DNA from: a virus
UHGV virus genome: UHGV-0073462
Length of the DNA stretch: 16,539 bases
Direction: 5' to 3' (one strand)
The notes under the pieces were generated by a model. It did no database searches, was not told where the DNA came from, and saw nothing but the letters and a program-made list of their open reading frames with translations. The number at the start of each line of letters is the position of its first letter. Within the stretch, counting starts at the first letter, position 1. Position numbers and translations under genes: made by a program. Below, piece by piece: positions 283-5,420 of the stretch.

Positions 283-978
283 TCATGCTGCGGTAGCTCT
301 CCATGCAGCAAGCAGACCAGCAATCCACTGAACACCTTTTGGGGTGAATTTAACCTGCGTAAAAGCATGACCATTGCCCGCCTCGCCCGTTTTCACGCTA
401 AACCGCCCCGCATCCAGGTGATACGAGTAAGGCGTCATTTTTCCAGCGAGGCGATACATTATTCCGTTCTCCAACAAAAACAGCCGGAAATCGGTTTCTT
501 TGATACCGAGTAACTTAGCAACTTCCCGGAATCCCATCAGACCAGATGCTTCAACATAGTTATCAACAAATTCAGCCTTCGGCGCTGCTATTGCCAGTTG
601 ATTTTCCAGCACTGCTTTCTGTTCAGCCAGTTTTGCCGCAAATCGCAACGCCTCAGGTAAAGTCCGGGGGATCTGAATACCATGCATCGCTTTGAGTCTT
701 GCCAGCACAGAACGACGAACGGCCTTTGACTCCCTCATGCCAACGAGCATCATCTGGTCAAAATCCAGATCATAGTATGCCGTTCTTGTCTGGTTATTGT
801 TTAACCGGAATTTTTTTCCGGTTCCATCAAGCTCTAGCTCATCCTCAATTTTTGCAAGAAACTTACGCGGTTCATGAGGGACTTCTCCGGCTTCTGCCCG
901 GGCTGGATTAATAATGTTATTCAGAAAATCCAGACTACTCATGGATATTTCATGATCGACAGAAATCATCTCTTTCAT
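283..978 (-). CDS. phage antirepressor-like protein with KilAC (ANT) type C-terminal domain
   Basis: 231-aa ORF with ATG at 978 and SD AGGA 7 nt upstream. The C-terminal half (LPEALRFAAKLAEQKAVLENQLAIAAPKAEFVDNYVEASGLMGFREVAKLLGIKETDFRLFLLENGIMYR) resembles the KilAC/ANT domain of phage antirepressors. Assignment from memory of the family, not a search. Confidence 0.65.
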   Translation of the reverse strand: MKEMISVDHEISMSSLDFLNNIINPARAEAGEVPHEPRKFLAKIEDELELDGTGKKFRLNNNQTRTAYYDLDFDQMMLVGMRESKAVRRSVLARLKAMHGIQIPRTLPEALRFAAKLAEQKAVLENQLAIAAPKAEFVDNYVEASGLMGFREVAKLLGIKETDFRLFLLENGIMYRLAGKMTPYSYHLDAGRFSVKTGEAGNGHAFTQVKFTPKGVQWIAGLLAAWRATAA

Positions 979-1141: not shown

Positions 1142-1251
1142 TCTGCGTGAAATAATCTGCCTAACTTTATTCACTTACATTTTGCCAGTTCGCAGGATTT
1201 CGTGTTATCCGCCCGCGCTGGCCAACGTCATTTTTCAGCAAAATATTCTGC

Positions 1252-1785
1252 TTATCTGTCGATTCCCCAGCACGCCAGAGCGCTCTCCTGGTCACGACGG
1301 GATACCTGACCATAACAGTTATTTGAGCGAATACGGCAGTCCCTGCCACCGTCCTTAATCCACCAGCGAATCGCCTCACACGCTCCCCTGCGATCGCCTG
1401 CATTAATTCGTTTATAAAACGTCGACGGGAAACACTTACCGGGACCAATGTTATACGGACAGAATGACGCGATCCCCGCTTTCTGGGGTTCGGTCAGCGG
1501 CACTCTGATGTTTTTCTCCACCCACGCCAGCGCTTTATCACGCTCAATGGCGTTAACCTGGTCGCATTTTTCCTTCGACAACTTCATGCCCGGAACGACA
1601 GGTTTGCCATCCACCACCGTGGCACCCCGGCAGATGGTCCATATACCAGAACCATCACGGTATGCTGTGGTGTGGTTACCTTCTTTTTCATCCAGAAACT
1701 GGTCGAGAATGTCAGGCGCAGATGCGCCTGCAGTAATCAGCGCCAGAATGGCAGCCGACAGGCCGTATCTGATTTTTGCGTTCAT
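1252..1785 (-). CDS. R: SAR endolysin, T4-type lysozyme (GH24), phage 21 R-like
   Basis: 177-aa ORF with ATG at 1785. N-terminal hydrophobic signal-anchor-release segment (MNAKIRYGLSAAILALITAGASAPD). E-x8-D-x5-T catalytic spacing in EGNHTTAYRDGSGIWT, typical of T4-like lysozymes. Sits in a lysis cassette with a pinholin. Confidence 0.85.
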   Translation of the reverse strand: MNAKIRYGLSAAILALITAGASAPDILDQFLDEKEGNHTTAYRDGSGIWTICRGATVVDGKPVVPGMKLSKEKCDQVNAIERDKALAWVEKNIRVPLTEPQKAGIASFCPYNIGPGKCFPSTFYKRINAGDRRGACEAIRWWIKDGGRDCRIRSNNCYGQVSRRDQESALACWGIDR

Positions 1786-2018
1786 GGATATTTATCAGGA
1801 TTTATCGGTTCCGAATCCCTGGATATGTTAAGTCTTCAGCCCGCCAGTGGTGGGCACTGGCGTAAACTCAACAATGCGAGATGGCTGCCTCGCAAAGATA
1901 ATCAAAGCAATGGATGCACTAAGTAAAAATAACGCTGTGTCAGATTACCTGATCGCCGAAATGGAACATCTAATTAAAGAAATACCAAAGACAGTTGCTC
2001 GTGATGATAAAAGATTCC

Positions 2019-2549
2019 TCAAGGCTGCTGAAGATGCTCTTTCAACAGTGAAGCGCAGCTTAGATGCGCCGCGCGATCAAGAATAGTTTCTTTCATTTCA
2101 TCTGCTGCAAGCACCTCATTTTTTGTTGGGGTGCTTTTTTTCAATTCAGCGATATAGCACTCCAGTTTTTCAATGCGTGATTCAATATCATCGTTTTCTG
2201 ACCGCAATGCCGTCGGTGGCGTCTTCAGAGAACCAGTAATTATTCCCGGTAGTTTTCCTCTGTAGGTTATCAACACATCCTGCGCCTCTAAAATTATGGG
2301 GCGCTTTTCCGGCGACTGCTCATCCCCTTCACATAACCCGGCAGCAATATCCATGAAAAACTGCTTCGCCTGCTTTTTCGCCTCAGCTTCGTAAAATTCC
2401 AGCGTGGCACCTTCAGTACGGTCAAGACTAATCGCCACATATGGCGACAACAACGACGGCTGCCCGGCAATTTCCAGTGCCACAGTAACAGTAATCTTAT
2501 CCGGGTAATTATTTATCCCTTTAACAACCAGTTCGTATTGTTTATTCAT
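2019..2549 (-). CDS. hypothetical protein (176 aa) encoded between holin and endolysin
   Basis: ATG at 2549 with SD GGAGAG 6 nt upstream; this SD overlaps the holin stop (TAG at 2553-2555), so it is likely co-translated with S. No motif I recognise; C-terminal part predicted helical. Possibly related to small prophage proteins found between holin and lysozyme in some E. coli prophages, but I cannot verify this. Confidence 0.6.
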   Translation of the reverse strand: MNKQYELVVKGINNYPDKITVTVALEIAGQPSLLSPYVAISLDRTEGATLEFYEAEAKKQAKQFFMDIAAGLCEGDEQSPEKRPIILEAQDVLITYRGKLPGIITGSLKTPPTALRSENDDIESRIEKLECYIAELKKSTPTKNEVLAADEMKETILDRAAHLSCASLLKEHLQQP

Positions 2550-2552
2550 CGT

Positions 2553-2768
2553 CTACTCTCCACGCGCCGCCTTACGCCGGTCTTCTTTAATTTTGAAATA
2601 CAGGTTCGTCAGATATGTCAGCAGACCAAACAGCAGACTCCCCAGCACGCCTATTGCCGCCCACTGAGACGGGGAAACCCTGTCCAGCAACTGCAGGAAC
2701 CAGTAGCCCGTTCCCACCGCTGACGTGGTGTATGACACACCTGTTGTGATTTTTTCCATCTGGTACAT
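2553..2768 (-). CDS. S: class II holin (pinholin), phage 21 S-like, with dual-start motif
   Basis: 71-aa product [71 protein letters not shown] closely resembles the S21 pinholin (two TMDs, charged C-terminal tail). Met1/Met4 dual starts fit the antiholin/holin pair. SD GGGAG upstream. Confidence 0.85.
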
Positions 2769-2843
2769 ACCCCGTCTCCCGCAATCCGGAAGCTCACAAC
2801 AACAAGAGGGGCATCAGCTCACACCGACAGCCCCTGCGCATGG

Positions 2844-3113
2844 TTACATCATCATTTCGCCGTCAGGCTGAGGCTCACTGCCACCATCAGGCTGAGACAC
2901 GACACCATCTGAAACAGCACTGTCACCCGCACCGTCTTCAGGCCCGTGAGCAGCCGTTACCCCCAGCAGTTCATCAAGAATGGCATCCACTTCAGCATCA
3001 AGACGCGCCTCAAGATTCTGACGAAGTTGCTGTTTCAGTGCGCTCCTGACTTCTTCAGAGCGCAGAACATCCTTCACTGCTTCAGCAGTGACCAGCGATT
3101 TTATTTCTGACAT
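2844..3113 (-). CDS. hypothetical acidic, helical protein (about 89 aa) upstream of holin
   Basis: The track ORF 2844..3227 begins at a TTG; the first ATG (MSEIKSLVTAEAV...) is at 3113. Product is helical with an acidic, Gly/Asp/Pro-rich tail. No recognised domain; start uncertain. Confidence 0.4.
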   Translation of the reverse strand: MSEIKSLVTAEAVKDVLRSEEVRSALKQQLRQNLEARLDAEVDAILDELLGVTAAHGPEDGAGDSAVSDGVVSQPDGGSEPQPDGEMMM

Positions 3114-3150
3114 GGTATTTTCTCGTTGAAAGGTGTTGTTAAGAAAGTTG

Positions 3151-3333
3151 CTACGGAATGAGAGGCTCTTCGGGTTTTGTTCCGGCTGACTGACTGGCGC
3201 TGATTTTCTCAGCGGCCCTTTTGTCAATCTGTCTGCACCAGAAATCTCTCACGACTCTGTACCCACCAGAAAGAAGATACAGCACACAAACTGCTGTACA
3301 GAAATACAATAAAATAAGCTGTAAAAATGTCAT
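3151..3333 (-). CDS. small membrane protein (60 aa), unknown function
   Basis: ATG at 3333 with strong SD GGAGGG about 5 nt upstream. N-terminal hydrophobic helix (LQLILLYFCTAVCVLYLLSGGY) followed by a charged tail. Confidence 0.5.
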   Translation of the reverse strand: MTFLQLILLYFCTAVCVLYLLSGGYRVVRDFWCRQIDKRAAEKISASQSAGTKPEEPLIP

Positions 3334-3418
3334 TATCCCTCCCAGTTATTGATATGGTGTTGACATCGTTAATACCTGTTGGTTAAAAAAGCGTCCTGCA
3401 TGTTTTGCTTTGGATGTG

Positions 3419-3470
3419 ACAACCTTTGCCGCCGGTTTCTTGTTTTCCCTTTCCCGGCGGCATTTTTTTA
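3419..3470 (+). terminator. plus-strand intrinsic-terminator-like hairpin inside the minus-strand late operon
   Basis: GCCGCCGG...CCGGCGGC 8-bp stem with an 18-19-nt loop, followed on the plus strand by ATTTTTTTA. On the minus strand it is not followed by a T-run. Confidence 0.4.
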
Positions 3471-3476
3471 TCCTGC

Positions 3477-5420
3477 TTACGCGTTATTCACTTCCACCAC
3501 AATGCTGTCAATCAGCACCGGGTATGTTGCACCGTTAGTGATATCGGTCACGCGCAACTTGTCTGCCGTAAACGTGCCGACCGGAGACTGCGACAGCATG
3601 AACGGTGTCCCGTCCTGTCCATCAATCACCGGCGTCACCTGAATGCTGTTATTACCGGCAAAACGGAATGCCAGCGTATGCCATTCGTTATTAAATGCAC
3701 CGAATGAACCCAGCTTCGTGTTCTGGCCTGGATTACCCTTGTGGTACATCACGTTAAGGTCTGTGGCATCGCTCTGAACATAAAACGATGCCAGCAGGTT
3801 ATGACCGGCATTACCTTCCAGGGTAACCCCTTGTGGCAGGGCAGAAACCGGCCAGTACAGCGCCAGTGCGTACTGATTAGCCGTCAGTGTGCCGTCAACC
3901 TTAAACCGGCAGCTGACAAGACCACCTTTACCCAGCAGGTCTGCACCATTACCGGCATCATGCTCAAGGTACCAGGAGGATTTACCTGTTTCCTTGGTCA
4001 GTTTCATTGCCTTACCCCCGCTGGCTCCGGCATCATCCACGATTTGAGACTTGCCACCACCGGCAGTCCAGCCCTGTGGTGCCAGCTGTCCTTCAGACTC
4101 TGATGCCCGGTAAGCAAGCAACGTGCTCATTGTCGTTGTGTCAGCCGGTGGTGTGGACGGTTTTGATGGTGTATCAGGTGACGGCTTCTCATCCGGTGGT
4201 GTCACGGTCTGCCCGCGCATCAGTTCAGCCGTGCGCCCTGCATGGAGCATAATAGCTGAGGCCAGACGGTCTGAAATGACGCCCCTGCGTGCCCATGAGC
4301 TGAAATGGCTGTCACGCTGTGTCGAAACAAAACTGCCCTGGGTTCGGGATGCCGCACCGTAATACCCGACAGCCACAATATCCGGGTCTTCCGCCGGAGC
4401 ATTCGTTGGCGTGTTCTGTCCATTCTCATCCGTCAGGAACGGTACAAAGAAAATATTCTGTGCGGTCAGATTTTTATATGCGCCATAGACTGTTTCATAC
4501 TGCGTGGCATACGTGTTTTTCCAGTAATACGTGGTATCACCACAAATCCACGGCACCGTGCCAGCATTTCCACTCACGCACTGCGCTGCAAGTGGAGACA
4601 GGTCGGTTCTGAACTGCTGAACCATGGCTGTGAATAAACCATTATGCTGCTGACTTCCTGAAGCAAGGTCTGCCTCTCCCTGCATCCATACCACAGCCAG
4701 AAGTTTATTTTTCGGGTTCTTCGCCAGCGCCGCTCTGGTGCGACTGAGCAGGTCCTGATACAGGGGTTTACCGGCTCCCCAGCGTGAAGAATCAGCGGAA
4801 GCACCGCTGACCTCACTGAATGAGCCGTCGGCTCCGGTGGTAAATGCCGAACTGCCACGGCAACAGGACACCAGAAGTATACCGGCATTCTGCGGGATAT
4901 AAGGCAGCAGTTTTTTGGCAATATGCAGCCCCTGACCGACAGTCCCGTACTGGCCCTTACTCAGGTCTGCATGAGGATGGTTAAGTGCGCTCATGTCCTG
5001 AACATCATGCAGACAGTGGTCTGCCGGAATAACGTCATTGTATGCACAGGTATCACCACCCGGCGTCACAGTGCTGCGACGGGCCAGCTGCTTAATACGG
5101 GAGTCAGGTCGATCATAGGTCTGCGGCAGAGGAAGCCCCTCACCATAGGCCATACCGTTCGACTGCCCGGCCAGGGGAATAACGTAGTAATACTCCGGTT
5201 CAGTGATAGCCACTCCCGGAGAGCCACCAGCCCCTGTGTCGGGCACAACCACAGGCGTGGTCACATCACCCTCTGCGGCAATAGCCTGCATCAGTGTATA
5301 AGGAGTGATAGCCACAGGACTGCCAAATGGCTGCCACCCCTCCTTCAGTTTTTGAGTCAGTCGCTCCGCAAGGTCTGACGGCGACGCCGCCCTGACCACA
5401 TCGTAGTGTTTAAATGTCAT
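3477..5420 (-). CDS. nanS: prophage sialate O-acetylesterase (NanS-p / YjhS family; DUF1737 N-terminus plus SASA/SGNH esterase domain)
   Basis: 647-aa ORF with ATG at 5420 and SD GGGAGG. N-terminus MTFKHYDVVRAASPSDLAERLTQKLKEGWQPFG is DUF1737-like. Esterase motif YYYVIPLAGQSNGMAYGEGLPLP contains the GQSN catalytic-serine block. Position between Q/late leader and the holin matches NanS-p genes of Stx-type lambdoid prophages. Confidence 0.85.
   Translation of the reverse strand: MTFKHYDVVRAASPSDLAERLTQKLKEGWQPFGSPVAITPYTLMQAIAAEGDVTTPVVVPDTGAGGSPGVAITEPEYYYVIPLAGQSNGMAYGEGLPLPQTYDRPDSRIKQLARRSTVTPGGDTCAYNDVIPADHCLHDVQDMSALNHPHADLSKGQYGTVGQGLHIAKKLLPYIPQNAGILLVSCCRGSSAFTTGADGSFSEVSGASADSSRWGAGKPLYQDLLSRTRAALAKNPKNKLLAVVWMQGEADLASGSQQHNGLFTAMVQQFRTDLSPLAAQCVSGNAGTVPWICGDTTYYWKNTYATQYETVYGAYKNLTAQNIFFVPFLTDENGQNTPTNAPAEDPDIVAVGYYGAASRTQGSFVSTQRDSHFSSWARRGVISDRLASAIMLHAGRTAELMRGQTVTPPDEKPSPDTPSKPSTPPADTTTMSTLLAYRASESEGQLAPQGWTAGGGKSQIVDDAGASGGKAMKLTKETGKSSWYLEHDAGNGADLLGKGGLVSCRFKVDGTLTANQYALALYWPVSALPQGVTLEGNAGHNLLASFYVQSDATDLNVMYHKGNPGQNTKLGSFGAFNNEWHTLAFRFAGNNSIQVTPVIDGQDGTPFMLSQSPVGTFTADKLRVTDITNGATYPVLIDSIVVEVNNA

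Follow-up and report, generated by a model that had tools for sequence, protein, structure and literature searches.

The question raised by this locus is what gene stands between the holin and the endolysin of a phage lysis cassette, and what it does there. The stretch of DNA analysed (hereafter the window) comprises 16,539 nucleotides of the UHGV virus genome UHGV-0073462, in which the original prediction had placed an unknown 176-aa ORF, taken as a novel insert, between pinholin S and SAR endolysin R. As listed in Table 1, the ORF does lie between an S21-type pinholin and a SAR endolysin, and its strand, which had been left unstated, is the minus strand, as for the whole lysis cassette. The order of transcription is SASA/NanS-p-like esterase, DUF1378, DUF826, holin, the 176-aa ORF, a gap, the lysozyme and the KilAC antirepressor. 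The holin has a dual start (Met1/Met4), and the endolysin shows a Gly/Ala-rich, SAR-like N-terminus and an E-x8-D-x5-T motif (read from the translation). No spanin genes were found in the first 280 bases of the window; in phage 933W ant separates R from Rz, and the window likewise has its Ant gene downstream of R. The mechanically called DUF826 ORF overlaps the DUF1378 gene; its Pfam match starts at aa 39, RefSeq relatives are annotated with 89-96 aa, and the ATG at 3113 (MSEIKSL...) is the probable true start.

Table 1. Features of the lysis cassette in the window, in order of transcription of the minus strand (features of the gap are given before R).
Feature	Position	Strand	Basis or remark
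SASA/NanS-p-like esterase	3477-5420	-	
DUF1378 gene	3151-3333	-	
DUF826 gene	within 2844-3227	-	mechanical 127-aa ORF with TTG start
S21-type class II holin (pinholin), 71 aa	2553-2768	-	PF04971 E=7e-33; phrog_9876/phrog_20 holin
Shine-Dalgarno GGAGAG of the ydfR-like ORF	2556-2561	-	the holin's last two sense codons; read directly
Holin stop TAG	2553-2555	-	
YdfR/DUF1327 gene, 176 aa + stop	2019-2549	-	PF07041, phrog_2091
ATG of the ydfR-like ORF	2547-2549	-	3 nt past the holin stop
Conserved DUF1327 core, aa 1-76	2322-2549	-	aligns without gaps to distant stand-alone proteins of 72-76 aa
Linker/extension, aa 77-112 (EQSPEKRPIILEAQDVLITYRGKLPGIITGSLKTPP), 36 aa	2214-2321	-	alignment; 114-aa alleles end here
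C-terminal helical modules A (LRSENDDIESRIEKLECYIAELKKSTPTKNE) and B (VLAADEMKETILDRAAHLSCASLLKEHLQQP)	2022-2213	-	common to 211-, 325- and 329-aa alleles
Stop codon TGA	2019-2021	-	first three bases beyond the recombination joint
Intrinsic-terminator-like hairpin (10 pairs) + T7	2109-2143	+	terminator scan
Gap between the ydfR-like ORF and endolysin R	1786-2018		233 bp
Putative antisense gene remnant (phrog_18136 type, 87-91 aa in relatives)	1847-2086	+	phrog_18136 E=5e-41
Deletion scar, single copy of CAAAGATAA	1893-1901	.	alignment with L005, L011, L024
Conserved R leader, 76 bp, with hairpin GCCAGTGCCCACCACTGGC (1843-1861)	1786-1861	-	alignment
SAR-type endolysin R (lysozyme), 177 aa	1252-1785	-	PF00959 E=1e-24
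KilAC-domain antirepressor (Ant) gene, downstream of R	283-978	-	

On the minus strand, the holin/ORF junction reads 5' ...GCG CGT GGA GAG TAG ACG ATG AAT AAA 3', and the Shine-Dalgarno sequence that had been noticed at the holin end is indeed there, inside the coding part of the holin gene. This arrangement would place the ydfR-like ORF for translational coupling to holin S, and the ORF is presumably transcribed with the late operon; expression around the time of lysis, as had been proposed, is a fair inference from this position and placement. In a consensus scan of the minus strand from 2550 to 3300, the sole promoter-like site was upstream of DUF1378, and no minus-strand terminator was found after the ORF by the same kind of scan.

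The ORF belongs to the YdfR/DUF1327 family, an assignment that we regard as near certain. It matches PF07041 with 136.3 bits (cutoff 25; E=4e-40), with aa 1-112 lying on profile positions 1-92 of 93, and it matches phrog_2091 over its full length (E=1e-80); these scores are far beyond chance. A search against DUF1327-type proteins had been suggested at the outset, and this was exactly the right place to look. The gene is therefore not an unknown one: the gene, the family and the position are already catalogued, and NCBI lists the identical 176-aa sequence, on 33 contigs, under the name 'DUF1327 domain-containing protein'. The DNA of the ORF is 100% identical in E. coli PM4-5 (where PGAP calls a pseudogene) and identical in other strains too; JNEC-KY202 is another carrier of the allele. 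The core shares 45% identity, without gaps, with aa 1-74 of K-12 YdfR, and Y53 and E54 are invariant across 28 sequences, down to 26% identity; Y5 and V21 are further conserved positions.

The 176-aa product matched no Pfam family other than DUF1327, and NCBIfam gave no match to it. No lysozyme, holin or spanin family was matched in Pfam, PHROG or NCBIfam, in agreement with the original prediction, and no toxic or enzymatic domain was found in Pfam or NCBIfam. The product is of a soluble type and acidic (pI 5.0, GRAVY -0.33, maximum Kyte-Doolittle(19) 1.05), with no TM segment and no signal peptide by hydropathy analysis. Among the PADLOC-DB defence HMMs, 0 families matched at E<=1, and an Rfam scan of 1200-3500 returned nothing near gathering scores. 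The only hit of a PDB sequence search was a GCN4 coiled coil (E=0.75, aa 116-164), which we rejected, and fold searches gave no useful lead. The 90%-identity cluster of the window protein also lists many proteins of 149-173 aa named 'terminase small subunit (partial)' by NCBI, probably a clustering or naming artefact.

The S-ydfR-R order turned out to be common in this prophage lineage and not a novel insertion. In our sample of 80 viral contigs encoding relatives, the order holin-ydfR-lysozyme is found in 80/80 loci, and the spacer from the holin stop to the ydfR start is 3-4 nt in every locus with the holin end on the contig; the distance to R is variable. The Qin prophage of K-12 has YdfR (b1555, P76160) in the same place (essQ holin, ydfR, rrrQ lysozyme). 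K-12 YdfR is soluble and cytoplasmic and has a core like that of the window protein, with a shared EFYEA motif, but it is only 103 aa long, with another short tail and a stop codon overlapping the rrrQ start, whereas the window has 176 aa, a linker, two helical modules and a 233-bp gap. DNA homologous to ydfR was found in 2896 out of 5426 complete E. coli genomes; the ORF is covered by at least 80% in only 135 of these, because its 3' part varies. Clear homology to a lysis-cassette component, which had been named as a refuting outcome, was found in the sense that the gene matches a known and regular occupant of such cassettes, while no holin, endolysin or spanin homology was seen.

A comparison with relatives without the gene had also been proposed, and 933W provides it. 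The cassette of 933W and Stx2a phages (S-R-ant-Rz) has the same surroundings (SASA esterase, S21-type holin, R lysozyme, and ant downstream), but there R follows S after a spacer of just 4 nt, in the adjacent order that had been given for canonical phage 21-type cassettes, and ydfR is an extra gene with respect to that layout. Of 369 phage records with the window's S-R DNA, 100 have the core; Stx1a and Stx2c phages make up most of these, and Stx2a phages are few. By these comparisons ydfR is a common but optional occupant of the cassette, and lysis does not depend on it, since the 933W cassette lacks it. The family has few members (96 representatives at 50% identity in a set of 1.84 billion proteins), and its most distant ones are stand-alone cores of 72-76 aa in lambda-like tail clusters, not in lysis cassettes, where they are placed between M-like and L-like tail genes or after an I-like gene. 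Such positions point to a late-operon cargo role of the DUF1327 core that would be independent of position.

Given the adjacent S and R of 933W, the presence of the core in only part of the phage records, the lack of a TM segment in the product and the distant cores in tail clusters, we infer that ydfR is accessory late-operon cargo and not lysis machinery; ydfR has no TM segment, lipobox or muralytic domain, and it is not present in every functional cassette. Optional genes at variable spots of the late region are familiar in lambdoid phages as 'morons', e.g. lambda bor and lom, and HK97 gp15. The ydfR gene is like them in being optional and in sitting at a variable late-region spot, and antisense small genes near ydfR (see below) resemble bor in orientation (bor is antisense in 933W). 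Unlike morons, ydfR showed neither a promoter nor a terminator of its own in the scans; it runs in the direction of the late operon and is placed for coupling to S.

Our best explanation as a whole, to which we assign a probability of about 0.4, is that the gene encodes a YdfR member carried as accessory late cargo, with a core that acts on RNase E or RNA. The lead comes from a study of K-12 YdfR (PMC13232886, 2026), in which bacterial two-hybrid signals were obtained for YdfR and Rne 1-597, Strep-YdfR eluted from lysates together with Rne 1-598, aa 1-72 of YdfR were sufficient as the interaction region, and DNase-resistant nucleic acid / RNA co-purified with YdfR; overexpression of YdfR changed few transcripts and was not toxic, and ydfR was silent under standard growth. 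The contact could be RNA-bridged, since the evidence for YdfR is co-elution from lysates rather than direct binding after nuclease treatment (PMC13232886). For the window protein, the RNase E link is an analogy drawn from this one paper on a 45%-identical homologue. We suggest, tentatively, that the core would associate with the catalytic half of host RNase E and/or with RNA, and that this association would adjust RNA decay late in infection (e.g. by changing how stable the long late transcript is). Oligomerisation or partner choice might be the task of the helical C-terminal modules, which would be dispensable, given that alleles of 103-116 aa are the commonest. Phages are known to encode RNase E modulators, such as T7 gp0.7, T4 Srd and phiKZ Dip, which are small proteins that target RNA decay in the host. 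If YdfR does associate with RNase E (PMC13232886), it would be a functional analogue of these proteins.

The placement of the gene might instead suggest a cytoplasmic regulator of lysis timing, made in step with the pinholin, which would bind the cytoplasmic tail of the holin, or the SAR endolysin before its release, and tune membrane depolarisation. The invariant S-R position with its 3-4 nt spacer and a Shine-Dalgarno sequence inside S (in the 80 viral loci, where the junction is on the contig, in the window and in K-12) fits such a role, as does the overlap of the K-12 ydfR stop with the rrrQ start, but the cassette of 933W and most Stx2a phages lacks ydfR while otherwise matching, the holin already has a dual-start antiholin, the ydfR product has no membrane segment, and the core is also found among tail genes, away from any lysis genes. 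According to a screen cited in PMC13232886, a ydfR mutant has an envelope-integrity phenotype; polarity on rrrQ could, however, explain it, and the main text of the cited screen paper does not mention ydfR. We consider a timing role unlikely. More generally, the roles first proposed (lysis regulator, released effector or abortive-infection factor) find no support in a product with no signal peptide or TM segment and no PADLOC match, in a family with distant homologues in tail clusters, and in a comparison with 933W, which lyses without ydfR.

Returning to the proposed RNase E/RNA core, its predicted structure combines three beta strands with a single long helix and contains the EFYEA motif (AF2 pLDDT 80-96, from a 28-sequence alignment), and a conserved (E/S)(F/Y)YE motif is found at the start of the core helix. 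Compared with a dsRBD (alpha-beta-beta-beta-alpha), the core is without the first helix. The linker is kept within the E. coli S-R subgroup and is predicted to be disordered (pLDDT below 50). Helices at aa 122-138 and 143-173 are predicted with low confidence and only in the full-length model built from 16 sequences, which was left out of structure searches because of its mean pLDDT of 55. The pN/pS ratio is 0.51 in the core, falls to 0.31 over aa 113-153 and reaches 1.19 over aa 154-176; these values hint weakly at only moderate purifying selection on the core, and the last 23 codons (aa 154-176) look unconstrained. The pN/pS frame test separates reading frames poorly, and for the C-terminal modules of ydfR it cannot prove coding, because out-of-frame ratios are as low as that of the true frame (the sequences are too similar and too recombinant).

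At least 10 length classes of ydfR were observed, including alleles of 114 aa (gap to R of 50 bp; 26 loci), 296 aa (36 bp; 16 loci), 329 aa (42 bp; 6 loci), 268 aa (42 or 452 bp; 7 loci), 176 aa (233, 321 or 333 bp; 12 loci including the window) and 211 aa (319 bp; 2 loci), and frameshifted or IS-disrupted long alleles (various gaps; 8 loci). Core-only alleles of 103-116 aa are the commonest form (27 sampled loci). Long YdfR alleles (296-330 aa; P0007, P0112, P0245, L013/L014) have the same architecture as the window through codon 176, and continue with module C (EKKRRDEQFAAFYDYC...) and a C-terminal domain of ~120 aa, ending 36-55 bp before R, where the window has foreign DNA instead. One database protein (P0173) has an unrelated N-terminal segment of ~80 aa fused to the ydfR tail and to modules A and C, which suggests that the C-terminal modules can move independently of the DUF1327 core, unless the gene call is a chimera.

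Such extreme C-terminal mosaicism, together with a patchy distribution among close relatives, a relatively high pN/pS (about 0.5), a location in known variable spots of late operons and the recurrence of different antisense small genes beside ydfR, would also be expected of an arms-race accessory factor (anti-defence, superinfection exclusion or host takeover) whose variable C-terminal modules track variable targets. The product has, however, no PADLOC match and no toxic or enzymatic domain; with no promoter of its own detected and with coupling to S, it would be silent in the lysogen, the state in which exclusion factors work, and K-12 ydfR is silent under standard growth (PMC13232886). An arms-race role is improbable in our view.

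The window allele itself has a traceable history. Its identity to long alleles (L013, L014, L002) stops right after ...CAGCAGCCT (CAG CAG CCT, codon 176), and at the position of the window's TGA the long alleles run on with GAA AAA AAA CGC... (EKKRRDEQ...). By this alignment, the window allele is a long allele (329-aa type) with its last ~150 codons replaced by foreign DNA. The possibility of residual module C hidden in the gap was rejected, as identity to the long alleles ends at the stop codon. This replacement accounts for the label that PGAP gives to copies with the identical sequence ('YdfR family protein, incomplete, missing C-terminus'), in which only the first 112-114 codons are annotated. 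PGAP pseudogene calls lie on the intact 176-aa ORF in L001 (4892-5233), L004 (1923-2264), L005 (2023-2364) and L006 (2326-2661), whereas GenBank submissions, unlike RefSeq/PGAP, hold the full 176-aa protein (EGD7622984.1 and others). For annotation, this means that the NCBI pipeline labels an intact 176-aa allele as a pseudogene.

Whether the ORF is a degraded pseudogene had been raised at the outset, and the answer is divided: the allele is truncated with respect to the 329-aa alleles and carries the PGAP pseudogene calls, but it has no frameshift and no internal stop, and it is longer than the commonest intact alleles (103-116 aa). The 176-aa architecture stays open in haplotypes that are only 84% identical (L024-L027), and proteins 78-92% identical to the window's also end in QQP. 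Because core-only alleles are the commonest and the 176-aa architecture is open in diverged haplotypes, truncation need not inactivate the window protein. That the window copy is a functionless relic, a truncated pseudogene left open by chance in a decaying prophage, is the least probable of the alternatives: the 'missing C-terminus' label, the missing C-terminal part of ~150 aa with a stop derived from the recombination joint, the frameshifted or IS-disrupted C-terminal parts in 8/80 loci, the pN/pS of 1.19 for aa 154-176 and the deletion in the neighbouring antisense gene speak for it, but the core and linker are intact, core-only alleles are the commonest form (27 loci), diverged relatives keep the same architecture open, and neither the holin and endolysin genes nor the coupling signals are damaged. 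Lysis timing, arms race and relic are all less likely than the RNase E/RNA reading.

The gap before R, which had been put at 230 bp, measures 233 bp; it is not empty, as it holds an antisense remnant and a conserved R leader. Most of it is a decayed antisense small gene that the replacement DNA brought in. Intact copies of the antisense gene, with a Shine-Dalgarno sequence and an ATG (AAGGA-N5-ATG), are found in L005, L011 and L024, and PGAP annotates the copy in L005 (WP_021565043.1); no consensus promoter site was seen for it in L005. In these relatives, two copies of the 9-bp repeat CAAAGATAA flank 100 bp containing the antisense Shine-Dalgarno sequence, ATG and N-terminus, and the 100-bp deletion in the window took the Shine-Dalgarno sequence, the ATG and the first ~28 codons. 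The last 22 codons of the remnant are the reverse complement of ydfR module B. In a comparison of two diverged versions, the antisense frame is the only open one, with 7 synonymous versus 5 non-synonymous changes (pN/pS 0.19, binomial P=0.005) and a 12-nt indel that is in frame, so the antisense ORF is probably a real gene. The terminator-like hairpin, whose position is also given as 2109-2136, lies 23 nt past the antisense ORF stop, inside ydfR module A (KKSTPTKNE on the other strand). It may be a chance feature, since it is also present in long ydfR alleles without the antisense gene.

The R leader is common to other haplotypes and, in part, to the 114-aa alleles with a 50-bp gap, and it forms the shared R-proximal boundary of all antisense-ORF (large-gap) haplotypes. 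Other antisense ORFs occur at the same place, with phrog_2572 in PhiR5_1 and phrog_1853 in L062. The S-R interval behaves like a cassette site flanked by CCACC repeats, and it makes a tidy case of a cassette-swapping hot spot in phage evolution. We rejected the idea that the antisense partner ORFs form one family, as all fall in different PHROGs, BLAST found nothing, and only a helical look is shared; a 'DUF1823' label for the PhiR5_1 antisense ORF was likewise rejected (Pfam E=0.023, below the cutoff).

A convergent or antisense partner accompanies the gene in three E. coli S-R haplotypes and in 4/5 distant tail-cluster loci. Swapped C-terminal modules and a recurrent convergent partner could mean that the unit is a two-gene sense/antisense module and not a lone gene. 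As a broader proposal, which we put forward as speculative and rather improbable, DUF1327 cores would be phage late proteins that dock on the catalytic half of RNase E (or on RNA) and reprogram decay at the end of infection. Many prophages of the Shiga-toxin and related kinds carry a ydfR gene in their late operon, and about half of E. coli genomes contain homologous DNA; should the association with RNase E be real, YdfR could affect how stable the late transcript is, and in Stx phages this transcript includes stx.

Some further observations concern the partners and the boundaries. At the distant tail-cluster loci, a convergent small ORF (70-186 aa) lies directly after the DUF1327 gene in 4/5 distinct loci; the partner ORFs, in L087, L088, L089 and L092, are assigned to phrog_25324, phrog_10490, phrog_18578 or no PHROG, and L090/L091 are without a partner. 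No homology was detectable among these distant-locus partners; by position they echo the antisense ORFs behind E. coli ydfR. Three unrelated antisense-ORF haplotypes have one R-proximal boundary in common, in which GGGCTGAAGACTTAAC comes after a hairpin GCCAGTG..CACTGGC. The 3' end of the 114-aa allele (..AAGACTCCACCGCTGGCCTGAAGACTTAAC) resembles a join of ydfR codons 108-111 to the R-proximal boundary (window 1843-1861, 2214-2230; loci L002, L065, L073).
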